Positions 1 to 31,938 of a stretch of 32,000 bases of DNA are shown one piece after another; position 1 is the first letter of the stretch; every line of letters begins with the position of its first letter. The notes below the pieces were generated by a model that saw only the letters and a program-made list of their open reading frames with translations, had not been told where the DNA came from and made no database searches. A program made the position numbers and the translations under genes. The DNA lies in NCBI GenBank assembly GCA_013360945.1, contig JABWAQ010000004.1, positions 2,891 through 34,890 on the forward strand, read 5' to 3'. This DNA is from Candidatus Brocadia sp. Its GTDB lineage: Bacteria > Planctomycetota > Brocadiia > Brocadiales > Brocadiaceae.

Positions 1-177
1 CTAAGGCAGATATGGAAATATCGGATAGAAGATTTGGAGAGTTATTTTATTCTTGATTTTTTGGATAATTACGGTGTTTATCCTATTTGCAACAACAAGA
101 GTGGATTTGGGATTAAAAAACACGACGTACCAGTAACCCTTGAAATAAACTGGAAGTATTTTGAAAAGAGGGCATAG
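1..177 (+). CDS. 3' end of an upstream gene entering from the left edge (partial, function unknown)
   Basis: Frame 1 is open from nt 1 to TAG at 175-177 (...YGVYPICNNKSGFGIKKHDVPVTLEINWKYFEKRA*). It is absent from the ORF track because it has no in-window start. Its stop lies 3 nt before the ATG at 181, which is operon-like packing. No family recognised. Confidence 0.4.
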   Translation, partial: LRQIWKYRIEDLESYFILDFLDNYGVYPICNNKSGFGIKKHDVPVTLEINWKYFEKRA

Positions 178-180
178 AAC

Positions 181-357
181 ATGACTGAACAAATCAAGAG
201 TGGACAGGAAATACTTGATGAGTTCTTTTCTCAAATAACGAACATTAACGGAGTGGATAAAGATGTTGCCGAGGCAGTTCTGAAATTATATAAAGAGGGC
301 AAGCTGACTAATACAAATTTGTCAAATGAGTTGAGCTGCATAAGGGATAAAAAATGA
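181..357 (+). CDS. small 58-aa protein, translationally coupled to the downstream ATPase (function unknown)
   Basis: I translated it by hand: ATG 181, MTEQIKSGQEILDEFFSQITNINGVDKDVAEAVLKLYKEGKLTNTNLSNELSCIRDKK, TGA 355-357. The TGA overlaps the ATG at 354-356 of the next gene (ATGA junction). It falls below the length cutoff of the supplied ORF track. The 77-aa antisense ORF (1..234 -) looks like a shadow of it. Confidence 0.45.
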   Translation: MTEQIKSGQEILDEFFSQITNINGVDKDVAEAVLKLYKEGKLTNTNLSNELSCIRDKK

Positions 358-2783
358 AAGTCAAAAACCTTGAAATAAGCGGTATTAGAGGAATTAGAAA
401 AATTGTTAATCTTGATTTGAGTCCTGGCAAGTCAGTTCTCATTTATGGTGATAACGGCAGTGGAAAAAGCTCTTTCGCAGATGCCCTTGAATGGTTTTAT
501 TACGACAAGGTAAAACATCTTACATCAGAAGAAATTGATACAAAGGGCATTACTGCCCTGAGAAATACTTTTTTATCGGATGACCAAGATGCTTATTTTG
601 ATTTGAAATACTCGAATTCAAAATACGATTCAAAGAAAAGGTTATTTCTCAAAAAATCAAAACTTACCAGCGAGTATTCTAACGCTTCGCAGGATTTCAA
701 AGATTATTTAGGCGCATCGTTAAAAGAAAATCTTATTCTTAGATATAAGGATTTATTGAGGTTTATTTTATCTACTAAGGCGGAGAAACTTGAGGAAATT
801 TCGCAAATAATAGGCTTTTCTGAGGTATCAAAAGTAAAAGGTGTCTTTAAAAAGGCTGTCGGGGATTTAAAGAAAGAGCTTAAGATAAAAGATTATGAAA
901 ACCATAAGGGGATAAAGCAACGTCAAATAATGGACCAGATAGGGCAAAGTCTTTTTGATGATAACCAATATTTCAATGCTATTAATGAATTAGTTGCTCC
1001 GCTGAATCTGTCTGTTGAGATTAGAGACGATGATGCAAGCGTAGATAAGATACTGGAGTTGCTAAAGAAACCGAAAGATCAAGAGGCTGTTGAGCAGCAG
1101 CTTTCATATGAAAAGGTTATTGAGAATTTGAGTAATTTCAAGGCTTCTTTTGATAATATTTGCTCATCCTATAAATCTTTCTATGAGAAGTGTCAGCAGA
1201 TTGCAAAGGATCAAGACAAGCTAAAAAAAATAAGTCTTGAGCCTTTATTATCGCAAGGGTTCTCAATTCTTGAAAAGAGATTATATGAGGAGAATAGATG
1301 CCCTCTTTGTCTGCAAGATAAAAACCGAGAGGAATTAATTGATGAGCTAAGAAAGAGACTTGAAGAATTAACTATTGTCAAAAAAGAAAAACAGTCTGCG
1401 TTAGACGAAAAAAATACAACTCAAAGATTTGTTCAAGAAGCTATAACTGAAATAAACAATGCGTTAAAAGAGAAAAGTTTGCTTCTGGATGAAAATTCTG
1501 ATTTGCGAAAAAAAGTTGAACGGCTTAAAGAGATAATCTCAACTGCTTTAGAGAAACTTCAAAAAACTGATCTTTCCGAAATTGAACAAATCAGTAAGTT
1601 TGAAGATTTTATCAGTTTGGATATGACGTATTTGCAAGACTTGATTTCTTCCCTTGCAGATAAAAAGGCAAAGATAATTACCGGAAAGAAAGATGATCTT
1701 ATCTTTACAATCTATAGCAAGATATTCTCTGTCAGGCAATTTTATGATGAAATCAAATCCATGAAGAAGGCTTCAGAGGTTCTTACCAAGCAACAGCAAT
1801 CTATGGAACTTATTTATAACGAGTTCGTTAAAAAGCAAAGAGAAGGTCTTTGCGCATTCTTGGAGTCAATATCCAGCGACATGAACGACCTCTATTTGTT
1901 TATGAATACTTCTGAAAATGTCAGCGCGATAGAGCTTATTCCGCTGGATGAAGATGATGAGTTTGTAGGAATCACATTGCAATTTAAATTTCACGGCAAA
2001 CCGGAATCGCCGCCCCATAAGTATCTCAGCGAATCTCATTTGAATTGCCTTGGAATATGCTTGTTCTTAGCGTCTGTAAAAGCCTTTAATAAGTTCAATA
2101 AGTTTATTATTCTTGATGACGTAATATCCAGTTTCGATACAAATCATCGCGCTCGATTTGCAAGGCTTTTAGTAGAAAAATTCAATGATTATCAGATATT
2201 TCTCTTTACTCATGAAAAGGACTGGTTTGAAATTGTCTCGAATATGGTAAAAGGAAAAAACTGGTTGATTAAGAAGATATGCTGGGATTATGACAGCGGA
2301 GCTAGTATTGAAGAACCCTTAACCGATCTGAAAGCAAGGATTGAAACGAAGATAAAAAATTCAGATTCATTGGAATTAGGGAATACGATTCGAAAATACC
2401 TTGAACGGCTCTTAAAGGACATCTGCTTTAATCTCGAGGCGAAAGTAAGGTTTCGCTTCAACGAAGATAATGAAAACAGAATGGCCAATGAATTGCTGTC
2501 AGAATTAAAGGGCAAACTTAAAGACAGAAAATGTGAGTTAAAAGATCAGGCTGTCTTTGAAAGGCTTAATGCCTCAATGTTTCTCGGCAACAGGACGTCC
2601 CATGATAGTACATTTACTGAAAGCATTGATGACTTGAAAATGTTTTACGGTGACGTTATGGAGTTGGAAGGGCTTTTCAGGTGTGATCCCTGTAACAATC
2701 TCATTTCCAAAAAATGTTACGACAATATTGAAAGTACAATAAGATGCTCTTGTGGAAAATTGAAGTATAATTGGAAAAAATAA
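354..2783 (+). CDS. Rad50/SMC/RloC-like ABC ATPase with coiled-coil CxxC hook, C-terminal HEPN-like region and zinc ribbon
   Basis: Walker A GDNGSGKS (aa 32-39, nt 447-470). A roughly 400-aa K/E/L-rich coiled-coil-like segment carries CPLC at aa 316-319 (nt 1299-1310). Then come an LSESH signature-like motif, Walker B FIILDDV and an FTHE H-loop (aa ~555-620). The tail has GNTIRKYLERLLKD ... FLGNRTSHDS, then C777xxC780 ... C798xC800. Confidence 0.85.
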   Translation: MKVKNLEISGIRGIRKIVNLDLSPGKSVLIYGDNGSGKSSFADALEWFYYDKVKHLTSEEIDTKGITALRNTFLSDDQDAYFDLKYSNSKYDSKKRLFLKKSKLTSEYSNASQDFKDYLGASLKENLILRYKDLLRFILSTKAEKLEEISQIIGFSEVSKVKGVFKKAVGDLKKELKIKDYENHKGIKQRQIMDQIGQSLFDDNQYFNAINELVAPLNLSVEIRDDDASVDKILELLKKPKDQEAVEQQLSYEKVIENLSNFKASFDNICSSYKSFYEKCQQIAKDQDKLKKISLEPLLSQGFSILEKRLYEENRCPLCLQDKNREELIDELRKRLEELTIVKKEKQSALDEKNTTQRFVQEAITEINNALKEKSLLLDENSDLRKKVERLKEIISTALEKLQKTDLSEIEQISKFEDFISLDMTYLQDLISSLADKKAKIITGKKDDLIFTIYSKIFSVRQFYDEIKSMKKASEVLTKQQQSMELIYNEFVKKQREGLCAFLESISSDMNDLYLFMNTSENVSAIELIPLDEDDEFVGITLQFKFHGKPESPPHKYLSESHLNCLGICLFLASVKAFNKFNKFIILDDVISSFDTNHRARFARLLVEKFNDYQIFLFTHEKDWFEIVSNMVKGKNWLIKKICWDYDSGASIEEPLTDLKARIETKIKNSDSLELGNTIRKYLERLLKDICFNLEAKVRFRFNEDNENRMANELLSELKGKLKDRKCELKDQAVFERLNASMFLGNRTSHDSTFTESIDDLKMFYGDVMELEGLFRCDPCNNLISKKCYDNIESTIRCSCGKLKYNWKK

Positions 2784-3005
2784 AATGCGGATATGAATAC
2801 TTGAAATAGTAATATAATTATGACAGAGGAGATAAAATTATAGCAACCATTAAGAATAAACTGATGGAAAAAATTCAATCTTTGCCGGATATTGAGAAGC
2901 TTGAAATCATCCAATCCGAAAGGGTCGCTTCGGCGGGCGGGAAGGGATGAATCCTGGTCTATTCCTGAGCAATCCTTACGATTGTCAACAATGTTTACAT
3001 TTCTA

Positions 3006-3034
3006 TTGACAAATATATTTACACAGATTAACAT
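3006..3034 (+). promoter_or_regulatory. candidate sigma70-type promoter for the HTH-Panacea/toxin operon
   Basis: TTGACA (3006-3011), a 17-nt spacer, then TAACAT (3029-3034), about 60 nt upstream of the ATG at 3096. Sequence match only. Confidence 0.3.
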
Positions 3035-3095
3035 AATGCAATAAAAAATAATGTTGTGATATCGTAAAATATCAAAGTCTGTTTTGGGGATGTCT

Positions 3096-3890
3096 ATGGC
3101 TAATTATCATGTTTCTAAACATTCGAAATTCATCCAGCAGATGCGCAAAAAGCACAATCTGACGCAGGAGTATCTGGCGTCAAAGATTGGCGTTTCCCGG
3201 CCTACTTATATCCAGATAGAGCAGGGCGAGAGGGATTTAACTGTTTCCGCAGCGAAAATACTTGCAGATATTTTTGGCATTTCTTTTGAAGATTTTTTAG
3301 CCGCTAAAGAGACAAGGCATGAGGTTGTTTTAGAAAAGGTGGGAGCACACAAAAAGGCAGATTCCGGTCTTCAGATCCGGGTAACGCAAAAGAATCTTGA
3401 TAAATTCAAGCAGGTGTTGCTTTATATTCTGGAAAAAGTCGGCAGCAAACCAAATGTCGGCGAAACGGTACTCCACAAACTCCTTTACTTTATTGATTTT
3501 GATTATTATGAGAAGTTTGAAGAAAATTTAGTGGGGGCGACCTACATTAAAAATCATCACGGACCGACATCGGTTGAGTTGGGGACGATTTTAAAAGATA
3601 TGCAGAAAAACGGCGAGATTGAAGCGGTAAAAAGCAAATATTTTAACCATTTGCAGAAAAAATATCTACCGGTCAAGCGAGCCGATCTTAATGCCCTTTC
3701 GGCGCGGGAAATTGGCCATATTGAAGAAGTCCTGGCTCGTCTTTCTGATAAAAATGCCAAAGAAATAGAAAATTACTCTCATGAAGATATTCCGTGGAAA
3801 ACGGCAAAGGAAGGTCAGCCAATTTCTTATGAAAGCGTGTTCTATCGGGACGAACGTTATTCAGTAAGAAACTATGACGATGAACTTTAA
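3096..3890 (+). CDS. HTH (XRE-family) + Panacea/SocA-like (DUF4065) domain antitoxin
   Basis: N-terminus LTQEYLASKIGVSRPTYIQIEQGERDLTVSAAKILADIFGISFEDF is a Cro/C1-type HTH. The C-terminal half, LHKLLYFIDFDYYEKFEENLVGATYIKNHHGPTSVEL, matches the DUF4065 pattern as I remember it. I placed the start at ATG 3096 because GGGGA lies 5 nt upstream; the track starts at TTG 3084. Confidence 0.8.
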   Translation: MANYHVSKHSKFIQQMRKKHNLTQEYLASKIGVSRPTYIQIEQGERDLTVSAAKILADIFGISFEDFLAAKETRHEVVLEKVGAHKKADSGLQIRVTQKNLDKFKQVLLYILEKVGSKPNVGETVLHKLLYFIDFDYYEKFEENLVGATYIKNHHGPTSVELGTILKDMQKNGEIEAVKSKYFNHLQKKYLPVKRADLNALSAREIGHIEEVLARLSDKNAKEIENYSHEDIPWKTAKEGQPISYESVFYRDERYSVRNYDDEL

Positions 3891-4212
3891 TGAACTGCCG
3901 GAATTTGCCAAAGAATTTAAGCGGCTGATCAAAAAATACAAATCATTGTCGGATGACCTGGAAGAGTTTAAACGCGTAATCACCGTTGAGCCTTTGGGTA
4001 ACAGTAAACATTTTAATATCCTAACAAAGAATGACCGGTGCGCTGTCGTAAAGGCACGTCTGTTTTGCCGCTATCTAAAGGGTTCTTCTCTGCGGATTAT
4101 TTACGCTTTCCACTGCAATGATTTGAAGGTTGACTTTATCGAGATATATTTTAAGGGCGACAAGGAAAATGAAAACTGTGAAAGGTTTAAAGCATATCTA
4201 ATCAATTTCTAA
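3874..4212 (+). CDS. RelE/ParE-superfamily (Gp49/HigB-like) toxin
   Basis: About 110 aa, overlapping the antitoxin stop by 17 nt (11 nt if ATG 3880 is used). It shows ELPEFAKEFKRL..., ...KARLFCRYLKGSSLRIIYAF...VDFIEIYFKGDKENEN, the typical RelE-fold C-terminal beta strands and K.D tail. Confidence 0.7.
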   Translation: MTMNFNELPEFAKEFKRLIKKYKSLSDDLEEFKRVITVEPLGNSKHFNILTKNDRCAVVKARLFCRYLKGSSLRIIYAFHCNDLKVDFIEIYFKGDKENENCERFKAYLINF

Positions 4213-4722: not shown

Positions 4723-5563
4723 ATGAAAGACCAAGAATTAAAAAAGGGTGAAATAGTTATTTACAAGACCAGGGATGGGCCTAAATTAGATGTTCGACTT
4801 GAGGAGGATACGGTATGGCTGCCGCAAAAGCAGATGGCTATGCTTTTTGATAAAGGCATACCAACTATTAATGAACACATACAAAACATCTATAAAGAAG
4901 GTGAATTAAAGCAAAACTCAACTATTCGGAAATTCCGAATAGTTCGATCAGAAGGCGGTAGAACAGTAAAAAGAGATATAGATTTTTATAATCTTGATGT
5001 GATAATATCGGTTGGCTATCGTGTAAAATCTCAAAGAGGTACACAATTTAGAATGTGGGCAACAAAAACACTTAAAGACCATCTGATTAAGGGCTACACC
5101 ATTAATGAAAAGAGATTACTGAGTACGCAGGAAAAATTAAAAGAAATGCGGGAAGTCATATCATTTTTGCAGGAAAAATCTAAACATGAACTACTTGCGG
5201 GACAAGAAATTTTAAGTTTGCTTGCCAGCTACTCAAAAACTCTCACACTGTTAGAACAGTATGACAAGGAAAATCTTTCTCTTATCAAAAAAGCAAAAGG
5301 CAAATTTGTTTTGCGATACGATGAAGTGAAAGAAGTAATTGATAAGGTTAGGAAAGATCTCTCCGTTTGTTGACGGTAATAAACGAATCGGTTCCTTCTT
5401 GTTTGTCTATTTTTTAGATAAGAATAGTTATCTCCATAAAAATATCGGGGAAAAGAAAATCAATGACAATGCTTTAACCGCCCTGGCTCTTTTGATAGCA
5501 GTAAGCAACCCAAAAGAAAAGGATAAACTGATAAAAATCATTACAAATCTGTTATCTGTATAA
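4723..5563 (+). pseudogene. RhuM-family / Fic-Doc fusion gene disrupted by internal deletion plus frameshift
   Basis: Frame 1 (4723-5373) encodes a RhuM-type N-terminal domain (IVIYKTRDG..., IISVGYRVKSQRGTQFRMWATKTLKDHLIKGY) and stops at ...VRKDLSVC*. Frame 2 continues as SPFVDGNKRIGSFLFVYFL...LLIAVSNPKEK to TAA 5561-5563. That is the Fic/Doc motif HxFx(D/E)GNKR with the His missing and the roughly 50 aa that normally precede it absent. Confidence 0.75.
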
Positions 5564-5611: not shown

Positions 5612-5670
5612 CTTGTGCCAAGAGGCAGAAAAGCGCATTGAGCGGATTATTGCAGAGGTGTGGGGAGAGG
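5612..5670 (+). repeat. copy 2 of the diverged duplicated coding remnant (peptide LCQEAEKRIERIIAEVWGEE)
   Basis: See 4641-4699. Several differences are synonymous or conservative in the shared frame (gct/gca, gaa/gag, R/K, K/R, S/A). The frame is closed upstream by TGA at 5607-5609. Confidence 0.6.
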
Positions 5671-5719
5671 AAATGGAAAAACAAGCAGTAAAGAATCAAA
5701 TTCACAGAAGGGGGACATT

Positions 5720-6004
5720 GTGATCATCCAGGAAATAGAGGATAAAGTAGTCTCCATATTAACAAAGTACAATGTCAAGACAATAGGCATCTTCGGCTCT
5801 TATGCCAGAGGTGTTCAAAGACCAGACAGCGATCTGGATGTCCTGGTGAATTTCAAGGAGAGAAAGGGCCTGCTTACCCTGGTGAGAATAGAACGGGAGC
5901 TGTCTGAGACCATTGGAGTGAAGGTTGATCTTCTCACAGAACAGTCCATAAGCCCATATCTGATCGACAGGATAAAATCGGAAATGAAGGTGATATATCA
6001 ATGA
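5720..6004 (+). CDS. MNT-type nucleotidyltransferase (antitoxin of HEPN/MNT module)
   Basis: Shows GIFGSYARG...DSDLDVLV (GS-x-n-DxD polymerase-beta NTase signature). I placed the start at GTG 5720, with AGGGGG 5 nt upstream; the track's upstream GTG 5660 would read through the repeat remnant. The stop overlaps the next ATG (ATGA at 6001-6004). Confidence 0.8.
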   Translation: MIIQEIEDKVVSILTKYNVKTIGIFGSYARGVQRPDSDLDVLVNFKERKGLLTLVRIERELSETIGVKVDLLTEQSISPYLIDRIKSEMKVIYQ

Positions 6005-6672
6005 TAAAGGACGACACCGTATTTTTGCGGCACATACTGGATGCAATCAATAAGATTCAGGAATATGCAAAAGGTATGGATTATGAGGGTTTCGGGGCAT
6101 CCAGTCTCGTGCAGGACGGTGTGATTCGACAATTGGAGATTATTGGAGAAGCCACAAAGAACCTTTCGCAGGAAATTCGGGAAAAGCATCCGCATATCCC
6201 GTGGAAAGACATTGCAGGAATGAGAGACAAGCTGCCGAACCTGTACCGGATTATTCATTTGCTGACCGGAGAAATTTCTGCCGGTGCGCAAAAGTCAGGC
6301 AAGCGGGTTTCATTAAAAGGGATATGGAAAGGCAGCTACATCGACGAGTCATTGTTTACGGAGGTCAGGAAGTCGCTTTTCCCATACGAGAAAGGCAGAA
6401 TTACACTTTCTTTTGAAGAAACGTTAACACGGATTGAAGAGAGCGAAAACTTTGAAGCCGCACCATTAAATATCGAGGTATTAAAAATTGCTGATAAAAT
6501 TGATGCCGACCTTGAAATGCACGACAGACTCATAGTTACAACCGCCTTGCATTATGATGCGGCACTGATTACGAAAGATAAAAATATCGCTTTTTCGGGC
6601 ATTCTTTCGACTATTTGGCAAGGAAGTCATTGCAATGAAAACCTCTTGGCAACAACGGATGCCTTTCGATAG
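6001..6672 (+). CDS. chimeric ORF: DUF86/HEPN (HepT-like) N-terminal ~80 aa fused in frame to an antitoxin-tail-like segment and the C-terminal half of a PIN domain; probably degenerate
   Basis: aa 1-78, RHILDAINKIQEY...QDGVIRQLEIIGEATKNL...HPHIPWKDIAGMRDKL, is DUF86. The expected R-N-K-L-I-H-E-Y reads R-D-K-L-P-N-L-Y, so the His is lost. Then follow ...SGKRVSLKGIWKGSYIDESLFTEVRKSLFPYE and ...EMHDRLIVTTALHYDAALITKDKNI (PIN C-terminal motif). Confidence 0.6.
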   Translation: MIKDDTVFLRHILDAINKIQEYAKGMDYEGFGASSLVQDGVIRQLEIIGEATKNLSQEIREKHPHIPWKDIAGMRDKLPNLYRIIHLLTGEISAGAQKSGKRVSLKGIWKGSYIDESLFTEVRKSLFPYEKGRITLSFEETLTRIEESENFEAAPLNIEVLKIADKIDADLEMHDRLIVTTALHYDAALITKDKNIAFSGILSTIWQGSHCNENLLATTDAFR

Positions 6673-6681
6673 GTGTTTACA

Positions 6682-6954
6682 ATGGATACCTGGTTTTTGT
6701 ATGTGATAAGATGCAAACATGGGAATTTATATACAGGCATTACCACGAACGTGGAAAGACGACTTGCAGAACATACCGGTAACCATAACAAAGGGGCAAA
6801 ATATTTACGGGGAAAGACTCCTCTGACACTGGCAATGAAAAAGAAGATGAAAAGCAAGAGTATGGCGTTACAGATTGAAGCAAAGGTAAAAAAACTACCA
6901 AAAATGAAAAAAGAGCTGTTCGTGGAGGGTAAGATTAAAGTAAAAGAACTATAA
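6682..6954 (+). CDS. GIY-YIG nuclease superfamily protein (UPF0213/YhbQ-like)
   Basis: Shows WFLYVIRCKHGNLYTGITTNVERRLAEHTGNHNKGAKYLRGK. ATG 6682 is preferred over the track's GTG 6673 because AGGTG lies 6 nt upstream. Confidence 0.85.
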   Translation: MDTWFLYVIRCKHGNLYTGITTNVERRLAEHTGNHNKGAKYLRGKTPLTLAMKKKMKSKSMALQIEAKVKKLPKMKKELFVEGKIKVKEL

Positions 6955-7171: not shown

Positions 7172-10100
7172 ATGAATTCCATCGCTTTTATTGATACGGA
7201 GATTGAGCCAAAAAGCCGAAGAATCCTTGACATTGGCGGCATTAATGATCACGGAAATTCTTTTCATTCAAACTCGGTTTCAGGTTTCATTGCCTTTTTG
7301 AAGGACACAAAATTCATTTGCGGTCACAATATTATCAACCACGATTTGAAATATATTCAAAAAGCTATCTGTGAAGCTGGAATAAGTCAGTCAAATATCA
7401 TTGACACATTGTTTCTCTCTCCGCTACTTTTTCCCGCCAGACCGTATCATGCCTTATCGAAAGATGATAAACTGCAAACAGAAGATACAAATAACCCACT
7501 CAATGATTCAATAAAAGCAAAAGACCTTTTCTTTGATGAAGTTTCGGCATTTAATCAGAAAGACGAATCTCTAAAACAAATTCTTTATTTGCTATTGTAT
7601 GGCAAAAAGGAGTTTTGCGCTTTTTTTAACTTCATCGCATACAAGAGCAGCGATTCAATGCTTGAACCTCTTATTCAGGAAAAATTTCACACTGAAATTT
7701 GCAATCAGGCAAAACTAAATGAAATTATTGCACAACACCCGGTTGACTTGGCGTATTGTTTGGCATTAATAGAATGCCGGAACCGATATTCAATTACACC
7801 GCCCTGGGTTCTCAAAAGTTTTCCTGATGTTGAACGGATAATGTTTTTGCTCAGGAACAAACCCTGCGTAAGCGGTTGCGTTTATTGCGACCAGGCACTG
7901 GACATACATAAAGGACTTAAAAGATATTTTGGCTTTGAATCCTTTAGAACGTACGTCCGTCAGCCATTACAGGAGAACGCAGTAAAAGCAGCCGTCGACA
8001 ACAAATCCATTCTGGCTGTCTTCCCTACCGGTGGCGGTAAGTCAATAACATTTCAAGTGCCGGCATTGATGAGTGGAGAGAACACAAAAGGGTTGACCGT
8101 AGTAATTTCTCCTTTGCAGTCATTGATGAAAGACCAGGTGGATAACCTGGAAAAGGTTGGAATCACGGATGCGGTAACGATAAATGGTCTGCTCGACCCG
8201 ATTGAAAGAGGAAAATCCTTTGAAAGAGTTGAAGATGGCTCCGCATCCATTCTTTACATATCGCCCGAATCTTTGCGATCAAAAACCATTGAACGGCTTT
8301 TATTGGGGCGAAATATTGTCCGTTTCGTAATTGATGAAGCACACTGTTTTTCATCGTGGGGACAGGATTTCAGGGTTGATTACTTATACATTGGAGATTT
8401 TATCAAATCGCTTCAGGAGAAAAAAAGGTTTGAAGATGTAATCCCTGTTTCTTGTTTTACTGCAACTGCAAAACGAAAAGTTATTGAGGATATCTGTTCT
8501 TATTTTAAAGAAAAATTATCCATCAATTTGGAAATTTTCAGGGCAAGCGCATCAAGGGCAAACCTACACTACAAAGTATTTCAGAAGGGCAACGAAGAAG
8601 AAAAATACAGTGCTACCAGAGACCTTCTGGAACAAAAAAATTGTCCGTCTATTATTTATGTTTCCAGAACACGAAGGGCATATGAACTTGCGAAAAGATT
8701 AAATGAAGATGGTTTTAGCGCTAAACCTTATCACGGCAAAATGGATGTAAAGGAAAAAACAGAAAACCAAAATGCCTTCATATCGGGTGAAATTCAAATA
8801 ATGGTTGCGACATCCGCTTTTGGAATGGGGGTGGATAAAAAAGATGTTGGAATGGTTATTCATTACGATATTTCCGATTCATTAGAGAACTACATTCAGG
8901 AGGCGGGAAGGGCAGGCAGAGATGAAAATATTACTGCCGATTGTTTTATATTATTCAACGAGGAAGACCTTGTCAAACACTTCATCTTGCTCAATCAAAC
9001 AAAACTTAGCATTAAGGAGATTCAGCAGATTTGGAAAGCGATTAAAGACATTACAAGATTTCGTTCAACGGTATCCACTTCTGCATTGGAAATTGCACGA
9101 AAAGCGGGTTGGGATGATAATATTGCAGAAATAGAAACGCGAGTCAAAACGGCAATTGCTGCGCTTGAAGTTGCCGGCTATTTGAAACGGGGGCAAAACA
9201 TGCCGAGGATTTTTGCTAATAGCATTTTGTCTAAGAATGCTCAGGATGCTATTGACAAAATAAAGCAATCATCAAGGTTTGATGAAAAGCAAAAGGTAAA
9301 TGCTGTAAGAATTATTAAAAAATTATTTTCAAGCAAGAATAGAAAACACTCAAATGATGAAGTCGCTGAATCAAGGGTTGACTATATTTCCGACCATCTT
9401 GGAATAGTAAAAGAGGATGTCATACATGTTATCAGTTTGCTCCGTGAAGAAAAAATATTGGCAGATACAAAAGACTTAACTGCCTTTATAAAAAAAGGGG
9501 AGAACAAAAACCGATCTCTGACTATTGCAGAAACATTCAGCCAGATAGAAATATTTCTTCTGTCGATTTTCGAAGAACAGGAAAAAATATTTCATCTGAA
9601 GGAATTGAATGAGCTGGTTGAGGAGAACGGCTGCAAAAAAGCTTCCCCAAACAATATTAAGACTATAATCAATTTTTGGGCAATTAAAAATTGGATTAAA
9701 CGGCAAAACATGGAATATTCCAATAATCATATTTTGGTTGTTTGTATTCAACCAAAAGAGGTATTAGAAAAGAAAATGGAAAAGAGACATGAGTTGGCAA
9801 TATTTATTGTTGACTATCTCTATGGAAAGATAAACGCTAACATCGATAAAGACGGACCCAAAAAAGAAGAAGTATTAGTAGAGTTTTCGGTATATGAACT
9901 TAAAGAAGCATTCGAAAAAGAGCGTAAATTATTTAAAGTGGAAATTACTATCGAAGATATTGAGGACACTCTTTTCTATTTGTCAAGAATTGATGCGATC
10001 AAAATTGAAGGTGGATTTTTAGTGATATATAATCGGCTTACTATTGACAGAATTGAGCAGAATAATAGATATCATTACAAGAATGATGATTACCAAAAAC

Positions 10101-11977
10101 TACATCAATTTTATGAAAACAAGATACAACAAATCCACATTGTTGGTGAGTATGCCATGAAAATGATTGAAGATTACAAAGGTGCTTTGCAGTTTGTTGA
10201 TGATTATTTCCAGTTAAACTACATGTCTTTTTTAAATAAGTATTTTCCGGGAAGCCGCCAGGATGAAATCAAACGAAATATAACCCCTGCCAAATTCCGT
10301 CAATTGTTTGGTTCATTGTCACCAACGCAATTAGAAATTATTAAGGATAATCAATCTAAACATATTGTTGTTGCGGCTGGACCCGGAAGTGGCAAGACAA
10401 GGGTACTGGTTCACAAATTAGCCTCCCTGCTTTTGATGGAAGATGTAAAGCATGAGCAATTATTAATGGTGACTTTTTCAAGGGCGGCGGCAACAGAATT
10501 TAAAAGGAGATTACTCCAACTCATTGGCAATGCCGCCAACTACATTGAAATAAAAACTTTTCATTCTTACTGTTTTGACTTGTTAGGCAAAGTTGGAAGT
10601 CTGGAGAAGTCAGATGCAATTCTACGGAGCACTATTGAAAAAATTAATAACGGCGAAGTCGAAGCGAACCGAATTACAAAAACGGTACTTGTAATTGATG
10701 AGGCGCAGGACATGGACGCTGACGAATATGCCTTAATAAACGCACTTATGGAACAAAACGAAGATATGAGAGTAATTGCCGTTGGTGATGACGACCAAAA
10801 CATTTACGCTTTCAGAGGTGCGGATTCAAAATATTTAGAGCAGTTTATTACAGAAAAAAAGGCTACAAAATATGAACTCATAGAAAACTACAGGAGCAAA
10901 GGCAATTTGGTTGAATTCACAAATCAATTTGTGAAGAAGATTCACCACCGGTTAAAAACCATCCCAATTTCTGCTAAACAGCAGGACAAAGGAAACATAA
11001 AGATGGTGCGTTACACCAGCAATAATCTCATTACTCCTCTGGTGGAGGATATTCTCTCAACAGAACTTGCAGGAACTACTTGTGTGTTGACAAAAACCAA
11101 TGAGGAAGCGCTACAGGTAACAGGACTACTACTCAAAAATAGATTGCAGGCAAAGTTGATTCAAAGTAACGACGGATTTAGTTTGTATAATCTTTTGGAA
11201 GTACGGTTCTTTCTGAACAAATTAAAGCCGGAAGACGATGTGTTCATAATCAGCGACGAAATCTGGGATAATGCAAAAAGGGAATTCCTAAAAAGGTTTC
11301 AACGGAGCTTAAGAATGGAAGTGTGCGAAAATATCATTAAAAAATTTGAAGCTGCCAATCCAAAGAAAAAACACAAATCCGATTTAGAGGTATTTATCAG
11401 GGAATCCAAACTCGAAGACTTTTTCAGTGAAAATGGTGAAACAATTTTTGTTTCAACAATACATAAAGCAAAAGGAAAAGAGTTTGACAATGTGTATTTA
11501 TTACTTGATAATTTTAATCAGCAAACCGATGATGTGAAGCGACAGTTGTATGTTGCAATGACAAGGGCCAAACAAAACCTGACGATTCATTTAAACGGTA
11601 ATTATCTTGACAATATTGTAACAGATAATTTAGCGAGAGCAGAAGATGGAAAAGCCTATCTGCCGCCAAACCAGATGGCAATGCACTTAACATTCAAAGA
11701 CGTTTGGTTAGATTATTTTATTAACAGACAACACATTATCGAGGAATTTATAAGCGGTGACGTGCTAACAATAGATACGGATGGATGTGCTAATGCCAAA
11801 GGGGAATCAGTACTAAAATATTCTAAACAGTTTCTTGCTACAATAGCTTCTGTACGGCAAGAAGGCTATCAATTAAAAGGGGTGAAAGTAAACTTCGTTA
11901 TTTATTGGAAAAGACCTGCTGAAAAAATTGAATGGAAAATTATTTTACCGGAATTGTATTTTGAAAGACAGCAATAA
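7172..11977 (+). CDS. 1601-aa fusion protein: DEDDh 3'-5' exonuclease + RecQ-family helicase core + UvrD/Rep-family helicase
   Basis: Exonuclease: FIDTE (aa 6-10), GHNIINHD (51-58), HALSKD (93-98). RecQ: PTGGGKS (285-291), VIDEAHC with DEAH (388-391), WGQDFR, ATSAFGMGVDKKDV, QEAGRAGRD. UvrD: AAGPGSGKT (GPGSGKT at 1070-1076), VIDEAQD (DEAQD 1176-1180), VGDDDQNIYAFRGA, NYRS, TIHKAKGKEFD, YVAMTRAK. One uninterrupted frame. Confidence 0.9.
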   Translation: MNSIAFIDTEIEPKSRRILDIGGINDHGNSFHSNSVSGFIAFLKDTKFICGHNIINHDLKYIQKAICEAGISQSNIIDTLFLSPLLFPARPYHALSKDDKLQTEDTNNPLNDSIKAKDLFFDEVSAFNQKDESLKQILYLLLYGKKEFCAFFNFIAYKSSDSMLEPLIQEKFHTEICNQAKLNEIIAQHPVDLAYCLALIECRNRYSITPPWVLKSFPDVERIMFLLRNKPCVSGCVYCDQALDIHKGLKRYFGFESFRTYVRQPLQENAVKAAVDNKSILAVFPTGGGKSITFQVPALMSGENTKGLTVVISPLQSLMKDQVDNLEKVGITDAVTINGLLDPIERGKSFERVEDGSASILYISPESLRSKTIERLLLGRNIVRFVIDEAHCFSSWGQDFRVDYLYIGDFIKSLQEKKRFEDVIPVSCFTATAKRKVIEDICSYFKEKLSINLEIFRASASRANLHYKVFQKGNEEEKYSATRDLLEQKNCPSIIYVSRTRRAYELAKRLNEDGFSAKPYHGKMDVKEKTENQNAFISGEIQIMVATSAFGMGVDKKDVGMVIHYDISDSLENYIQEAGRAGRDENITADCFILFNEEDLVKHFILLNQTKLSIKEIQQIWKAIKDITRFRSTVSTSALEIARKAGWDDNIAEIETRVKTAIAALEVAGYLKRGQNMPRIFANSILSKNAQDAIDKIKQSSRFDEKQKVNAVRIIKKLFSSKNRKHSNDEVAESRVDYISDHLGIVKEDVIHVISLLREEKILADTKDLTAFIKKGENKNRSLTIAETFSQIEIFLLSIFEEQEKIFHLKELNELVEENGCKKASPNNIKTIINFWAIKNWIKRQNMEYSNNHILVVCIQPKEVLEKKMEKRHELAIFIVDYLYGKINANIDKDGPKKEEVLVEFSVYELKEAFEKERKLFKVEITIEDIEDTLFYLSRIDAIKIEGGFLVIYNRLTIDRIEQNNRYHYKNDDYQKLHQFYENKIQQIHIVGEYAMKMIEDYKGALQFVDDYFQLNYMSFLNKYFPGSRQDEIKRNITPAKFRQLFGSLSPTQLEIIKDNQSKHIVVAAGPGSGKTRVLVHKLASLLLMEDVKHEQLLMVTFSRAAATEFKRRLLQLIGNAANYIEIKTFHSYCFDLLGKVGSLEKSDAILRSTIEKINNGEVEANRITKTVLVIDEAQDMDADEYALINALMEQNEDMRVIAVGDDDQNIYAFRGADSKYLEQFITEKKATKYELIENYRSKGNLVEFTNQFVKKIHHRLKTIPISAKQQDKGNIKMVRYTSNNLITPLVEDILSTELAGTTCVLTKTNEEALQVTGLLLKNRLQAKLIQSNDGFSLYNLLEVRFFLNKLKPEDDVFIISDEIWDNAKREFLKRFQRSLRMEVCENIIKKFEAANPKKKHKSDLEVFIRESKLEDFFSENGETIFVSTIHKAKGKEFDNVYLLLDNFNQQTDDVKRQLYVAMTRAKQNLTIHLNGNYLDNIVTDNLARAEDGKAYLPPNQMAMHLTFKDVWLDYFINRQHIIEEFISGDVLTIDTDGCANAKGESVLKYSKQFLATIASVRQEGYQLKGVKVNFVIYWKRPAEKIEWKIILPELYFERQQ

Positions 11978-13878: not shown

Positions 13879-14041
13879 GTAACTATTCAGTGAAAGCCAA
13901 TAAAGAATATATTTTCTGAATAGTTAAGAACAAATAGGGAAAATGGGCATGCCGGAAAATCTCGAAGGGATGGCATAATTATAGAAAAAAGTACGCCCCA
14001 ATATAAAACCTCGTAGGGGTGAAAATACGCTGAATAGTTAC
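13879..14041. repeat. 163-bp unit bounded by perfect 12-bp inverted repeats, with a third internal copy (MITE-like or binding-site cluster)
   Basis: gtaactattcag (13879-13890) and ctgaatagttac (14030-14041) are exact reverse complements. ctgaatagtta occurs again at 13916-13926, which also forms an 11-bp stem with a 25-nt loop together with the first copy. Confidence 0.5.
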
Positions 14042-14127
14042 TAATTTATACAAAAACCGGGAAAATACTTGCTTTTTTCGGGGAAAGAATAAAGTGAATT
14101 GCTCCAGGTTGTCCGGGATTTGGCATT

Positions 14128-15489
14128 TTAGCAAATTGTTGTGTCATGTTCGTCCTGGATTTCCATAAGCATCCTGGCGCTTTTATCGAGTGGGGTAAGC
14201 TCCCCGATTTCCTTTTTGCTTCCAGCACCAAGCACTTCAAACTTTCGCACAGATGGAAGCACACGTCCTTCGAAGGATGCAACAGCGGAGTTGAATGCTT
14301 CCACGGCCTTCCCAAGAGAACCACCGAGCTTCGTTAAGTGTTCGACCATAGTGGCAATGCGCTCGTGAAGTTCCTGCCCAAGTTCACTAATCTTCCTGGT
14401 ATTCTCAGACATCTGCTCCTGCCGCCAGCCATAGTACACGGCACGCAGGAGCGCAATCAGGGTTGTCGGTGTTGCCAGGATGACCTGCTGTTTAGCGCCC
14501 TCCTCAATCAGTGCGGGATCCAGCTCGAGTGCTGCGCCGAAAAATGCCTCACCTGGCAGAAAAAGGACGACAAATTCCGGCGAAGGTTGAAATTGTTCCC
14601 AATAGGATTTTGCGCTCAGTTTTATCATATGAGACCGAATCTGCTGTGCATGCTCCTTGAGTTTCGATAAACGATCGTCATCGTTTGCAGATTCTAAGGC
14701 ATCAAGATACGCCTGAAGGGGTGTCTTCGCGTCAACAACAATATTTTTACCACCGGGCATCCGCACAAGCAAATCAGGCCGCAAACGGCCATCTTCCGTA
14801 GCTACCGTTTGTTGCCGGTGAAAATCGCAGTATTCCAGCATGCCGGCAATCTCAACTACCCGCTTGAGTTGTATTTCTCCCCAGTGACCGCGCACCGCCG
14901 GTGTCCGAAGGGCCCTGACCAGATTGCCGGTCTCGGACTGTAACTTCTCCTGTGTGTAAATGAGCGACTTGACCTGTTCGGTCAGGCTTCCATACGCCTG
15001 CTGACGTGCTTTTTCTAATTCCTGAATCCGGGTATCCACCTTCTCCAGTGACTGCTTGATGGGTGCGACGAGATGTTCTACGGCCTTCTGCCTCTGCTCA
15101 AGGTCTCCCTTTGCCTCGGTTTGATATTTTTCCAGGGTAATTTTTGCCAGCTCCAGGAAGGATTGGTTGTTGCTTTTCAGCGCTTCTGATGAAAGTGCCT
15201 TAAAGGCATCGCCCAGCTTCAGGGTGGCATCGTTAAGAATATTCAGTTTTTCATAAGCCGCCTTACGCTCGTGTTCGAGTGTGGTCTCCAGCCGCACAAT
15301 CAACTGATTATGCTGAGAAATCGTTTCGTTCTTCAGATCAAGATCGGCCCGTGCGTGTGCCAGATCCTGTTGTATGGTGATACATCGTTCGTTGAGCGTT
15401 GCGATGCGTGCCTTACAGAGCAGCCAGGTGATGGCAGTTCCTGCGAAAACCCCGGTAACTATTGCAATGATTAACCAATGAATTTCCAT
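14128..15489 (-). CDS. rmuC: DNA recombination protein RmuC
   Basis: N-terminal TM helix (WLIIAIVTGVFAGTAITWLL), a long coiled coil, and a C-terminal RmuC-type region (VVDAKTPLQAY, EFVVLFLPGEAFF). Confidence 0.88.
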   Translation of the reverse strand: MEIHWLIIAIVTGVFAGTAITWLLCKARIATLNERCITIQQDLAHARADLDLKNETISQHNQLIVRLETTLEHERKAAYEKLNILNDATLKLGDAFKALSSEALKSNNQSFLELAKITLEKYQTEAKGDLEQRQKAVEHLVAPIKQSLEKVDTRIQELEKARQQAYGSLTEQVKSLIYTQEKLQSETGNLVRALRTPAVRGHWGEIQLKRVVEIAGMLEYCDFHRQQTVATEDGRLRPDLLVRMPGGKNIVVDAKTPLQAYLDALESANDDDRLSKLKEHAQQIRSHMIKLSAKSYWEQFQPSPEFVVLFLPGEAFFGAALELDPALIEEGAKQQVILATPTTLIALLRAVYYGWRQEQMSENTRKISELGQELHERIATMVEHLTKLGGSLGKAVEAFNSAVASFEGRVLPSVRKFEVLGAGSKKEIGELTPLDKSARMLMEIQDEHDTTIC

Positions 15490-15528
15490 AGGAAGCCATC
15501 TTTTAAAAGCAAATTATGGAAATAAGAT

Positions 15529-17355
15529 TTATTCAACCGTTACGCTTTTAGCGAGATTCCTGGGTTTATCGACATCACACCCCCGCATGACCGCCATATG
15601 ATAGGCCAGTAATTGGAGGGGAATTACAGAAAGGATCGGTGTGAGGCAGTCGGCGGTCTTGGGTATGTAAAAGACATGATCGACCTTTTCCCGAATCTGA
15701 TCGTCTCCTTCACTTGCAATGGCAATCAACCTTCCGCCCCGTGATCTGACCTCTGCGATATTACTTAAAATCTTCCCGTAGACGCTGTCTCTTGTAGCGA
15801 TAAAGACCACAGGCATATCTTTGTTAATAAGGGCAATGGGGCCGTGCTTCATCTCGGCTGCCGGGTAACCCTCGGCGTGGATATAGGATATCTCTTTGAG
15901 TTTTAATGCGCCCTCAAGCGCTACCGGGTAGTTGTATCCCCGCCCCAGATAGAGGGCGTTTTCACTGCCTTTATATATCCTTGCAAGTTCCACAATCTCC
16001 TTTTCCATGTTAAGGATAGTTTGAACCTTATCCGGGATTGACTGGATGACCTTGACCATATCGGAAGATGTCGTGGTGTGGGAATACTTCAGATTCATCA
16101 TATAAAGGGTAAACAAATACAAAACGGTAATCTGTGCAGTAAACGCCTTGGTGGATGCCACGCCAATCTCAGGGCCGATATGCAAATAAATCCCGCAATC
16201 GGCTTCCCGCGCGATGGTGCTGCCAACGACATTACAGATAGAAAGCAACTTGGCCCCTTTGTGTCTGGCCTCCCGCATTGCCGCCAGGGTGTCTGCTGTT
16301 TCACCGGACTGGCTTATGGCGATCACGACCGTGCCTTCTTCAATCACGGGATTCCGGTATCGAAATTCTGAGGCATATTCTACCTCAACGGGTATACGCG
16401 CCAGCTCTTCCAGCATGTATTCACCCACAAGCCCTGCATGCCAGGATGTGCCGCAGGCAACAATAACGATGCGCCTGGCCTCCCGAAGTTCCCTTTCGCA
16501 GCTTATCAATCCTCCGAGTTTAACCAAACCACGATCACCCTCTACTCTTCCCCGCATAACGTTTCGCAATGCCTGTGGTTGCTCATGGATCTCTTTGAGC
16601 ATAAAATGTTCATAGCCGCCCTTCTCGATCATGTCGATATTCCACAGTACTTCCTCAACTTTTTTATACGTGGGGGTATTTTGCATGGTCTTGGTTTCGT
16701 AATGGTTCATCGTAAGAATGGCCACCTCGTTATCGTCCAGATACACCACGTCCCTCGTATGCTCCAATGAAGCGGAAACATCTGAGGTTATAAAATATTC
16801 CCGGTTTCCGATCCCTATTACCAAAGGCGATCCCCTCCTTGCTGCTACGATCTTTTGGGGGTCCTTCGGGGAAATTACCGCAATGCCATAGGTTCCCTCA
16901 ACCTCTTTCAACGCCTCTATTACGGCCATTTCGAGGTTGTTCTGAAAATATTTTTCGATAAGATGCGCCAATACCTCCGTGTCTGTTTCGCTCTTAAAGA
17001 TATGCCCTTCCCGTTTCAATTTTGCTTTTAAGTAATCATAGTTCTCGATGATCCCATTATGCACTACGGCAATCCCGTTGTTGCAATCGACATGGGGATG
17101 GGCATTCTCCATAGTGGGGGCGCCGTGGGTAGCCCATCGAGTGTGGACGATTCCTATATGCGCGCTGAAATTGTTCCCATCGAGTTTCTTCTCCAGTTCG
17201 GAGATCTTGCCTACAGCCTTTTCGCATCTCAAAAGACCATTTTCAACAAATGCAATCCCGGAGGAATCATATCCGCGATATTCGAGTCTTTTGATACCGT
17301 CTAAGAGCACATTGACAGCCTCATGATGTCCAATATATCCTACTATTCCGCACAT
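15529..17355 (-). CDS. glmS: glutamine--fructose-6-phosphate aminotransferase
   Basis: MCGIVGYIG (Cys2 Ntn nucleophile), two SIS domains, C-terminal KSVTVE. I moved the start from the track's TTG 17370 to ATG 17355 so that Cys follows Met. Confidence 0.95.
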   Translation of the reverse strand: MCGIVGYIGHHEAVNVLLDGIKRLEYRGYDSSGIAFVENGLLRCEKAVGKISELEKKLDGNNFSAHIGIVHTRWATHGAPTMENAHPHVDCNNGIAVVHNGIIENYDYLKAKLKREGHIFKSETDTEVLAHLIEKYFQNNLEMAVIEALKEVEGTYGIAVISPKDPQKIVAARRGSPLVIGIGNREYFITSDVSASLEHTRDVVYLDDNEVAILTMNHYETKTMQNTPTYKKVEEVLWNIDMIEKGGYEHFMLKEIHEQPQALRNVMRGRVEGDRGLVKLGGLISCERELREARRIVIVACGTSWHAGLVGEYMLEELARIPVEVEYASEFRYRNPVIEEGTVVIAISQSGETADTLAAMREARHKGAKLLSICNVVGSTIAREADCGIYLHIGPEIGVASTKAFTAQITVLYLFTLYMMNLKYSHTTTSSDMVKVIQSIPDKVQTILNMEKEIVELARIYKGSENALYLGRGYNYPVALEGALKLKEISYIHAEGYPAAEMKHGPIALINKDMPVVFIATRDSVYGKILSNIAEVRSRGGRLIAIASEGDDQIREKVDHVFYIPKTADCLTPILSVIPLQLLAYHMAVMRGCDVDKPRNLAKSVTVE

Positions 17356-17372
17356 ACGTTTATCCCTCAAAA

Positions 17373-18383
17373 TTATTGTGATGTTCTCACAAGCCGTTTG
17401 ATTGTGTTGTATATTTCCGGTAATTTTTTAATCAATACCTGAATACGTTTTTCTTCAGCAATGGGTTTGGCCGGTGAACCCCATACCGTGGAGCCGGCCT
17501 CTAAGCTCTTATAAACATTGGAACCGCCGCCGATAATGCAGTTATCACCGATAGATATATGATCGGTAATGCCGACATCTTCAGCAATCAGGACATTCTT
17601 CCCGATTCTGGCGCTTCCTGCGATCTTTGCATATGCGATGAGCATGGTGTTGTCTCCTATGGTAACGTTATGGGCGATGTGAGAATGGTTGTCTATCTTT
17701 ACCCCGTTTCCAATAGTAGTCTTATCGAGCGCGGCGCGGCAGATCGTTACCATGGCGCCAATTTCCACATCGTCCCCTATTTCGACGATTCCTGCCTGTG
17801 GTATCTTAACGTGTCTGTTTTCACTTTGAAGATAACCGAATCCATCGTCTCCGAGAACGCTGTTACAATGAATAATAACCCGTTTACCAATGATAACATT
17901 TTCTCTAATGGATACATTGGCATAGATGACGGTGTCATCTCCAATGCAACTATCCCTGCCAATAAACGTGTTTGGATAAATGATAACATGGGTTCCTATC
18001 TTTACGTTATCTTCTATGACAACATTTGCCCCGATTGAAATCTCTCTTCCTATAGTGGCTTCTTTGCTAATGATAGCAGTAGGATGAATGCCTGTTGGTC
18101 GCGCATATCTTTTTTTTACCACGACTTCCATAAGCTTTGTAAAGGCAAGGTACGGGTTTTCTACAACAATGTGTGGTTTTTTGAGCGCTTGTATCTCGCG
18201 GTGTGTAATAATTGCAGAAGCATGAGATATCAAAGCCTGTGGGATCAGTGTGTCATTCTTGATAAAAGTTATATCCCCTTCTTTTGCAACTTCAACGCTG
18301 GCAATATTATTGATGCAGGTATCTCCATTGCCAATGATCCTTCCACCAACGATGGACTGAATTTCATTGAGTGTGAATTTCAT
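17373..18383 (-). CDS. lpxD: UDP-3-O-acylglucosamine N-acyltransferase
   Basis: 336 aa, with an N-terminal LpxD-type domain followed by long left-handed beta-helix hexapeptide repeats (IG.NV.I....I). It ends 2 nt before glmS. Confidence 0.88.
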   Translation of the reverse strand: MKFTLNEIQSIVGGRIIGNGDTCINNIASVEVAKEGDITFIKNDTLIPQALISHASAIITHREIQALKKPHIVVENPYLAFTKLMEVVVKKRYARPTGIHPTAIISKEATIGREISIGANVVIEDNVKIGTHVIIYPNTFIGRDSCIGDDTVIYANVSIRENVIIGKRVIIHCNSVLGDDGFGYLQSENRHVKIPQAGIVEIGDDVEIGAMVTICRAALDKTTIGNGVKIDNHSHIAHNVTIGDNTMLIAYAKIAGSARIGKNVLIAEDVGITDHISIGDNCIIGGGSNVYKSLEAGSTVWGSPAKPIAEEKRIQVLIKKLPEIYNTIKRLVRTSQ

Positions 18384-18484
18384 ATATCTTTTCTGTAAAT
18401 TCTCAATGTAAAGAGGAAAACTGAAACAAAGAAGTTGTCAGGCAGAGAAGATATCGGGTGATGCCGGTGTTTAATTTCCTCTAA

Positions 18485-19729: not shown

Positions 19730-19963
19730 TTATTTGTGTTCCTCGATGTATTTGATGGCGTCTCCTACCGTCCTTATCTTCTCTGCATCTTCATCGGGGA
19801 TATTCATATCAAAGGCGTCTTCAAATTCCATGATCAGTTCTACAGTATCCAGAGAATCGGCTCCCAGGTCATTGATAAATGACGTCTCTTTTGTAATCTG
19901 TTCGGATTTTACTCCCATTTGTTTTGTGATAATTTCCTTAACCTTATCTTCAACTGCTGGCAC
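19730..19963 (-). CDS. acpP: acyl carrier protein
   Basis: [17 protein letters not shown] (phosphopantetheine Ser motif). GTG start with AAGGAGG 7 nt upstream. Confidence 0.95.
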
Positions 19964-19985
19964 GGTTTTACCTCCTTGTTAAAAA

Positions 19986-20927: not shown

Positions 20928-20932
20928 GCCTT

Positions 20933-22985: not shown

Positions 22986-22989
22986 AGAC

Positions 22990-31934: not shown

Positions 31935-31938
31935 TATG

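Follow-up and report, generated by a model that had tools for sequence, protein, structure and literature searches.

A conserved three-gene operon around a Rad50/RloC-like hook ATPase in Candidatus Brocadia, a predicted nuclease-controlling defence module

We studied a 32,000-nucleotide (nt) stretch of DNA from Candidatus Brocadia sp. (contig JABWAQ010000004.1, positions 2,891 to 34,890; hereafter the window), whose left end carries three consecutive genes. They encode a GIY-YIG-like protein of 153 amino acids (aa) that is cut by the window edge (p153), a small acidic protein of 58 aa (p58) and an 809-aa ATP-binding cassette (ABC) ATPase with a CxxC zinc-hook motif. The three genes are one tightly coupled operon whose linkage is conserved in ten or more phyla, plus plasmids. 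We predict that the trio is an anti-phage or anti-plasmid module in which the ABC ATPase controls a nuclease, and assign this reading a probability of roughly 0.55. An earlier note on this DNA, made from its letters alone, had proposed a sensor ATPase with two partner proteins; our analysis supports this proposal in that we find a conserved three-gene module around a Rad50/RloC-like hook ATPase. The respective features (window coordinates, strand, description and basis) are as follows.

1..177, + strand: 3' end of the p153 gene (aa 96-153 of 153); open from nt 1, TAG at 175-177
181..357, + strand: p58, small acidic protein of 58 aa; ATG at 181, TGA at 355-357; coupled in translation to the genes on either side
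354..2783, + strand: hook ABC ATPase of 809 aa with HEPN-like C-terminal domain and zinc ribbon; based on the open reading frame (ORF), SMC_N, the AlphaFold2 (AF2) model and Foldseek
447..470, + strand: Walker A GDNGSGKS, aa 32-39; G32, G37, K38 and S39 invariant
777..1904, + strand: predicted antiparallel helical (coiled-coil) insert, aa 142-517; AF2 secondary structure
1299..1310, + strand: CPLC zinc-hook motif, aa 316-319, in the predicted apical loop 308-324; invariant in 63 + 14 sequences
2022..2120, + strand: signature-like YLSESH (aa 557-562) to Walker B FIILDD (aa 584-589); conservation
2211..2213, + strand: H-loop H620; invariant
2319..2678, + strand: putative HEPN-like helical bundle, aa 656-775; domain model, Foldseek and conservation
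2682..2753, + strand: putative four-Cys zinc ribbon (C777, C780, C798, C800); invariant in close homologs, beta strands 785-806 in the model

The truncated ORF, the 58-aa ORF and the 809-aa ORF are real genes, as judged from protein sequence conservation that is far above chance. On re-reading the sequence, all ORF coordinates of the earlier note (1-177, 181-357, 354-2783) hold, as does the ATGA junction at 354-357, where the stop codon of p58 overlaps the start codon of the ATPase gene. Shine-Dalgarno-like AGAGGG and AAGGGA precede the p58 and ATPase starts. The 58-aa ORF, which had been taken for a true gene, is conserved at the protein level with 31-71% identity in 12 further loci. The complete first gene was obtained by leftward contig extension: a locus on a Candidatus Brocadia metagenome-assembled genome contig (L001; JAPKGR010000013.1) reaches 2869 nt left of the window and contains the full p153 gene at 2585-3046, which encodes 153 aa. 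The expected order of an upstream effector gene and a small middle gene stands, while a large effector of the LmuA type does not, since the first gene encodes a 153-aa GIY-YIG-like protein.

That the three genes form one unit is supported by the conservation of their linkage. The ATPase family comprises at least 549 homologous cluster representatives, nearly all of 804-813 aa, and the p153 family 1469 clusters, all of about 153-160 aa; the longest contig is of equal size in 25 ATPase/p153 cluster pairs. From a one-genome-per-species collection, we obtained nine full-length ATPase orthologs with upstream DNA (34-44% identity), which stem from Cloacimonadota, Alphaproteobacteria, Bacteriovoracaceae, Melainabacteria, Bdellovibrionota, Bacteroidia, Dehalococcoidia and Endomicrobium. 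In each of them (9/9), the ATPase gene is directly preceded by homologs of p153 (55-66% identity) and p58 (35-54%), with gene order and strand unchanged. Three more loci found via closer homologs show the identical arrangement. The order p153 - p58 - ATPase on one strand is present in 13 loci, where Planctomycetota, Elusimicrobia and Schekmanbacteria, among others, are also represented. On plasmids of Aliiroseovarius crassostreae and Brucella anthropi, the small ORF overlaps the ATPase gene, and the p153 homolog (44% identity) is inverted, i.e., located on the opposite strand, yet still adjacent. The linkage of the trio thus withstands rearrangement. The earlier note had considered that ATPase homologs might lack both upstream ORFs; instead, both genes are kept in each of the loci with upstream DNA (15/15). 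Start and stop codons overlap or are no more than 3 nt apart in the window and, going by the called genes, in three loci (L085, L086, L088); in some distant loci, the spacing grows to about 20-30 nt. No ATPase homologs were found in the phage collection.

The 809-aa protein is, by sequence and structure model, a Rad50-like split ABC ATPase with a CxxC in a predicted apical loop. We assessed conservation in two sets, i.e., 63 homologs at 48-89% identity and 14 orthologs down to 28% identity. Walker A, YLSESH, FIILDD, H620 and CPLC are invariant or nearly so in both, and K38, C316, C319, D588/D589 and H620 are invariant down to 28% identity. The split head is hence found with Walker A, signature, Walker B and H-loop present and conserved at the positions first read from the sequence. 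Pfam's SMC_N matches the ATPase with 7e-15 (55.5 bits vs. a cut-off of 40). The AF2 model, which was built on the 63 homologs and has a pLDDT score (predicted local distance difference test) of 83.7, is laid out as an N-terminal head lobe, helices 142-307, a loop 308-324 that holds the CPLC, helices 325-517 and a C-terminal head lobe. The CPLC therefore sits where it had been expected, namely in the loop that connects the two long helical arms. Its apical placement is deduced from this helix-loop-helix layout, because the secondary structure of the model is what was examined. The helical insert covers about 375 aa (142-517) rather than the roughly 400 aa estimated before. The best Foldseek match of the ATPase is Rad50 (7zr1, 1.8e-14), followed by SMC heads, with the LmuB structure 9uxh_F at rank 24 (5.7e-9). 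A profile search of PDB sequences returned SMC and Rad50 heads only, and Pfam's Rad50_zn_hook gives a weak match in one homolog (E 0.049).

The 176-aa C-terminal domain of the ATPase (634-809) looks, from sequence and model, like a HEPN-like bundle with a zinc ribbon in the style of RloC and PrrC. A separate model (pLDDT 81.7) consists of a beta-hairpin, a helical bundle and the four-Cys zinc ribbon. When compared with the PDB by Foldseek, all matches of this domain with a root-mean-square deviation <10 are HEPN proteins, i.e., SsR10 (2q00_A; E 0.078, probability 0.96), Csm6', 4nqf, HepT, TM0613 (1o3u) and Las1; DUF4145 (HEPN) matches weakly in one homolog. Within the 14 orthologs down to 28% identity, E684, K688, N703, N706, R709, S749 and H750 are invariant, R680 is kept in 13/14 (shifted by one residue in the remaining one, L008) and D760 in 13/14. 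The resulting motif reads R680-x3-E684-x3-K688, then H750. The four-Cys zinc ribbon is lost in some distant orthologs. In our reading, the domain is probably an RNase of the ATPase itself. A profile of the domain was searched against 1.84 billion representatives, where the best 150 matches all have the ~800-aa architecture or are fragments, i.e., no other domain context is found among them. The region is not matched by any model of Pfam (2025), PADLOC (2023) or NCBIfam (June 2026), which are the releases used throughout. The ortholog with the shifted arginine (L008, Bacteriovoracaceae) has G680/R681 and carries R745, which gives a canonical R-x4-H, and it has lost 3/4 of the zinc-ribbon cysteines; it hints that the arginine can occupy either site.

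For p153, a GIY-YIG fold is likely given its residue pattern, and the protein is a probable, sequence-predicted nuclease. In 32 aligned members of the family, G27-L-Y29, Y49-I-G51, R63, H67, E105/E108 and N126/N127 are invariant. That is, the complete set of GIY-YIG-type residues (GIY, YIG, Arg, His/Tyr, Glu, Asn) is present, in a spacing that we take to be near that of I-TevI. The GIY-YIG-like core takes up nearly all of the 153 aa. The label 'GIY-YIG nuclease family protein' was given by the Prokaryotic Genome Annotation Pipeline (PGAP) to the plasmid homolog that is 44% identical to p153. No Pfam domain is annotated on any of the 1469 p153 clusters, and PADLOC gives no match for p153 at E<=1. 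Profile comparisons by hhalign with the window's own 93-aa GIY-YIG protein and with I-TevI (approximate query sequence) were both not significant.

The middle protein p58 has an isoelectric point of 4.9, and 24/29 of its positional equivalents are net acidic. G8, F15, D26 and L36 are invariant, with homologs at the same position in the 12 further loci named above. No family of Pfam, PADLOC or NCBIfam matches p58. Since coupling to the ATPase gene is universal, we infer that p58 binds the ATPase, where it may act as an adaptor or safety pin. In hhalign comparisons among the small ORFs of different clades, homology is not shown (P 0.06-0.12), such that position, size and acidity are all they have in common.

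Some further ORFs accompany the trio. A KTSC-like ORF of about 71-77 aa lies just upstream of p153 in 6/15 loci, while there is none in the Brocadia locus; it may be an optional fourth component. The copies are located as listed, where Pfam's KTSC was matched on the copy of L088.

L088: 5147-5362
L005: 4959-5186
L006: 1558-1785
L007: 5116-5343
L008: 5109-5342
L016: 836-973

In the last of these loci, from Endomicrobium, the KTSC-like ORF is short and the ATPase ortholog is broken into two ORFs (1679-3715 and 3724-4110), which could be pseudogenes or assembly errors. Upstream of p153 in L001 are a 104-aa ORF, KwaA/KwaB (Kiwa) and a type I specificity-subunit remnant. The 104-aa ORF was considered as a fourth component and rejected, as it has no homolog in the other loci and does not resemble the ORFs of 100 aa in L085 and L009.

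The hook ATPase also has distant relatives (750-826 aa), which carry a single CxxC (CP[LFMV]C) near aa 285-315. Each comes with a small and usually acidic ORF (53-91 aa) that overlaps or adjoins the start of the ATPase gene. Compared with these relatives, the GIY-YIG partner is confined to the window's clade. One operon type combines an SNF2-like gene, the small ORF and the ATPase with a Mod-like methylase and a Res-like helicase; the C-terminal domain of its ATPases carries the textbook HEPN motif R-N-x-x-G-x-H and aligns collinearly but weakly with that of the window's clade (hhalign, P=0.014). Bare pairs of small ORF and ATPase are found in Bathyarchaeota, Patescibacteria and Anaerolineales, with a C-terminal domain whose homology to the window's is clear (hhalign 98%, E 2.4e-13). 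The pair stands alone on conjugative plasmids and in archaeal and candidate phyla radiation genomes, whereas on a plasmid of Rhizobium its neighbour is an N6 methylase, and on Halorhabdus pHTIA it is inserted into an annotated BREX-5 locus, with pglX on one side and pglZ on the other. All relatives match the LmuB models of PADLOC at 1e-18 to 1e-27 and two distant ones its PrrC model, while no model of Pfam, PADLOC or NCBIfam reaches its cut-off. Fusions of ABC ATPases with HEPN domains in restriction-modification neighbourhoods are an established class that includes PrrC and RloC (PMC3710099). The respective loci are the following.

Small ORF and hook ATPase with HEPN-type tail: L017, L018, L019, L022, L023, L027, L028, L029, L075 (ATPase at about 5.1-8.4 kb)
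Further loci with the same unit: L092 (3805-6469), L093, L091, L094, L049, L054, L079

The trio's locus lies in a low-GC defence island. The GC content is 34-39% over the first 12 kb of the window vs. 43-49% in the housekeeping part from about 14 kb (14000-32000), which holds RmuC, GlmS, LpxD, FabF/D/H, PlsX, AlaS, RecA and GltX. Besides the trio, the island contains Kiwa, the type I S remnant, a Panacea toxin-antitoxin pair, RhuM, MNT-HepT, a small GIY-YIG gene and a 1601-aa fusion helicase. In other loci, the neighbours are integrases, type I, II and III restriction-modification genes, RES, Bro-N, DUF3800 and Tn7-like genes. ATPase homologs of Planctomycetota and Nitrospirota share 83% identity; together with the patchy distribution, this points to horizontal transfer. 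The neighbouring features within the window are as follows.

3084-3890: protein of 268 aa with HTH_3 and SocA_Panacea, overlapping a 112-aa ORF (3874-4212) without family match; the pair looks like a Panacea-type antitoxin and an uncharacterised toxin
4723-5373: RhuM-family ORF, followed by a 74-aa ORF in another frame (5339-5563) with a Fic/Doc-like GNKR motif; probably a frameshifted RhuM-Fic gene
5660-6004: MNT nucleotidyltransferase
6001-6672: HepT-like ORF of 223 aa, whose C-terminal half is unlike HepT; may be a fusion or remnant
6673-6954: YhbQ-type GIY-YIG protein of 93 aa, unrelated to p153
7172-11977: single ORF of 1601 aa, DEAD/RecQ-like and UvrD-like helicase fusion, at the right edge of the island

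How the predicted module might work can be sketched as follows. The ATPase would dimerise via its heads and the zinc hook and would sense an infection cue on DNA, most likely DNA ends that are free or aberrant, by analogy with Rad50/SbcC, RloC and Lamassu. Until then, p58, made stoichiometrically by translational coupling, would bind the ATPase and keep the nuclease(s) off. ATP hydrolysis would activate the silenced complex, whereupon the GIY-YIG protein p153 would cut DNA and the HEPN-like domain of the ATPase would probably cut RNA, possibly tRNA as for RloC. The invader would be destroyed, or infection would be abortive. In its most specific form, the proposal is a two-pronged defence, i.e., the hook ATPase couples DNA-end sensing to a DNase in trans (GIY-YIG) and an RNase in cis (RloC-type HEPN), the acidic protein of about 60 aa is an obligatory safety pin, and the pair of mini-protein and hook-ATPase-HEPN serves as a portable second line. 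We advance this form tentatively, with a good deal less confidence than the general prediction of a nuclease-controlling module.

In architecture, the trio is closest to RloC. RloC, a Rad50-like anticodon nuclease (Davidov & Kaufmann 2008, Klaiman et al. 2012), is likewise a single polypeptide of about 800 aa with an ABC head split by a coiled coil and an apical CxxC. Its subsequent RNase-type domain is of the HEPN superfamily, and the HEPN-like domain here would be the counterpart. The hallmark activity of RloC is to excise the wobble nucleotide of tRNA. In GkaRloC, K44, C291 and D572 are landmarks and R692/E696/H737 form an essential triad; its RNase is activated by ATP and linear DNA and deregulated by hook mutations (PMC2610378, PMC3458546). 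When compared by published positions, the order K44, C291, D572, R692-x3-E696, H737 corresponds to K38, C316/C319, D588/D589, R680-x3-E684, H750 of the ATPase studied here. The likeness is thus closer than the earlier note had it, since what were noted as extra C-terminal domains resemble the RloC/PrrC-style HEPN-like domain with a zinc ribbon. RloC differs in its spacing from E to H (41 aa vs. 66 here), in lacking the extra four-Cys zinc ribbon and in acting alone, whereas the ATPase here always comes with the small upstream ORF and, in the window's clade, also with the GIY-YIG partner.

In operon logic, the trio is closest to Lamassu (LmuA-LmuC-LmuB, DdmABC), with which it shares the order of effector, small protein and SMC/Rad50-like ATPase and, as proposed here, the sensing of DNA ends followed by nuclease activation. 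It might therefore be a divergent Lamassu, in which p153 is a minimal LmuA (effector only), p58 a mini LmuC and the ATPase an LmuB into whose C-terminus the partner-binding domain has been taken up, such that sensed DNA ends release or oligomerise the nuclease. The sole near-full-length match to any named model indeed is PADLOC's LmuB PDLC03859 (E=7e-23, query 1-632, model 3-593/611, i.e., 97%), with PDLC03865 at 5e-20, and 9uxh_F is among the fold matches. Furthermore, long LmuB proteins of about 800 aa have a Walker B of type hhhhDD and a single CxxC (PMC12663957), to be compared with FIILDD and one CPLC here. The restriction-modification-embedded relatives of the SNF2/Mod/Res type, however, match the same LmuB models equally well, so we consider this match a superfamily signal and not evidence for Lamassu. 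Neither p153 nor p58 matches a LmuA or LmuC model of PADLOC at E<=1, Pfam's DUF3732 does not match the ATPase, and no LmuB or DdmC chain appears in the profile search of PDB sequences, while Rad50 and SMC rank above LmuB in the fold search. The middle protein has a mere 58 aa, p153 is too small for the conserved C-terminal domain of LmuA, which was not found in the trio, and no LmuA chain is among the 50 best PDB fold matches of the ATPase's C-terminal domain. This ATPase has its own HEPN-like domain and zinc ribbon, and the effector domains listed for LmuA do not include GIY-YIG. Membership in Lamassu was hence rejected, and the divergent form is improbable in our view.

Similar considerations apply to other known systems. 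PARIS (AriAB), Septu (PtuAB) and Gabija also combine an ABC ATPase as sensor or scaffold with a small nuclease encoded beside it, and AriA and PtuA models of PADLOC match weakly. Their ATPases, however, are of OLD/AAA_15/AAA_21 type without zinc hook, their nucleases are Toprim or HNH, and both a small middle protein and a HEPN tail are lacking. An analogy to the three-component ABC-3C systems, as raised by the earlier note, was dropped: p58 and p153 are without MC matches, and MC3 matches weakly (E 0.014-0.078) inside the ATPase coiled coil of two homologs. MADS mad3 and PDC-S06 were set aside as well, given weak matches to the ATPase core only and nothing relevant in the literature on both. 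The impression that the locus fits no named system cleanly is therefore confirmed, as no RloC, PrrC, LmuA, LmuC or NCBIfam model fits; the trio is closest to RloC and Lamassu in the respects given but fails membership of both. By sequence comparison, the family is not covered by any Pfam, PADLOC or NCBIfam model. No description of the trio was found in the literature searched; the family may be catalogued in the classification of ABC ATPases by Krishnan et al. 2020.

Several observations weigh against the predicted nuclease-controlling module or parts of it. With regard to p153, Pfam's GIY_YIG_2 matches 30/32 family members, all below threshold (best E 3.6e-4; 17.5 bits vs. a cut-off of 22.4) and over the N-terminal third only. 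The basis of the name that PGAP gave to the p153 homolog is not stated, a p153 profile search of PDB sequences found nothing relevant, and hhalign against a 25-sequence YhbQ-like GIY-YIG family is not significant (P=0.24), though YIG..R..H are aligned. With regard to the ATPase, Pfam's AAA_13, the family of RloC and PrrC, does not match the window's protein at E<=1 (on homologs it covers the ATPase part only, with 26-36 bits vs. a cut-off of 36), and PADLOC gives no RloC or PrrC match at E<=1. The HEPN fold match is weak with a best Foldseek E of 0.078, and the clade has G/A745 in place of the arginine of the canonical Rx4-6H (G/A745-N-x-x-S-H750; 12/14 orthologs, with R745 in L008 alone). Finally, L088 has ordinary housekeeping neighbours.

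Because of the replaced arginine, the HEPN-like domain could be catalytically dead. The GIY-YIG protein would then be the sole effector and the domain a relic that acts as a docking or regulatory platform for p153 and p58. This fits with the retention of R-N-x-x-G-x-H in the restriction-modification-embedded relatives, with a GIY-YIG partner that occurs only in the clade without the Rx4-6H arginine, and with invariant residues in loops of low pLDDT (700-708, 747-753), as expected for an interface that is ordered on binding. Yet the seven residues E684 to H750 named above are invariant down to 28% identity along with R680 in 13/14, and R-x3-E...H is the pattern that is essential in RloC and PrrC (PMC2610378). 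In addition, pairs without a separate nuclease (L049, L054, L079, L091, L094) retain the same N-x3-H domain, which suggests that there the domain itself is the effector. We hold a dead domain to be less likely than the module as predicted, but more likely than the other alternatives.

A far less probable explanation is a housekeeping or mobile-element complex for DNA repair or maintenance, i.e., an analogue of SbcCD/Mre11-Rad50 with a GIY-YIG protein in place of SbcD. Rad50 is the best structural match, and both systems have a zinc hook at the coil apex and a nuclease, probable in the case of p153, encoded beside the ATPase. GIY-YIG nucleases do function in repair, e.g., UvrC and Slx1. The Gene Ontology term 'double-strand break repair' is assigned to relatives by PGAP, L088 is located next to a RecN-like gene, and several relatives are on plasmids near partition or transfer genes. 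On the other hand, the coil is much shorter here, the partner is GIY-YIG-like instead of an Mre11/SbcD phosphoesterase, and no gene for the latter is found in any of the 15 loci. We also know of no role of a HEPN-like domain in known repair complexes. Likewise, the low-GC island, the recurrence of defence and mobile genes as neighbours, the patchy distribution with its signs of horizontal transfer (83% identity across phyla) and relatives embedded in BREX-5 and type III-like loci all speak for the predicted defence module rather than for repair.

Nuclease-gating ABC/SMC-like ATPases, such as those of RloC, PrrC, Lamassu, PARIS, Septu and Gabija, are a main theme of bacterial immunity, while the relay of the DNA signal from zinc hook and coiled coil to the effector is poorly understood. 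The family described here is common among uncultured anaerobes. It is also compact, as a single sensor appears to govern two nucleases of different chemistry, and it includes a p58-type partner that is easily missed by gene callers. That mini-ORF and hook ATPase recur within BREX-5 and type III-like loci suggests that the pair backs up restriction systems in general, much as PrrC does in the prr locus. If true, the PrrC/RloC principle would extend well beyond the two known families.

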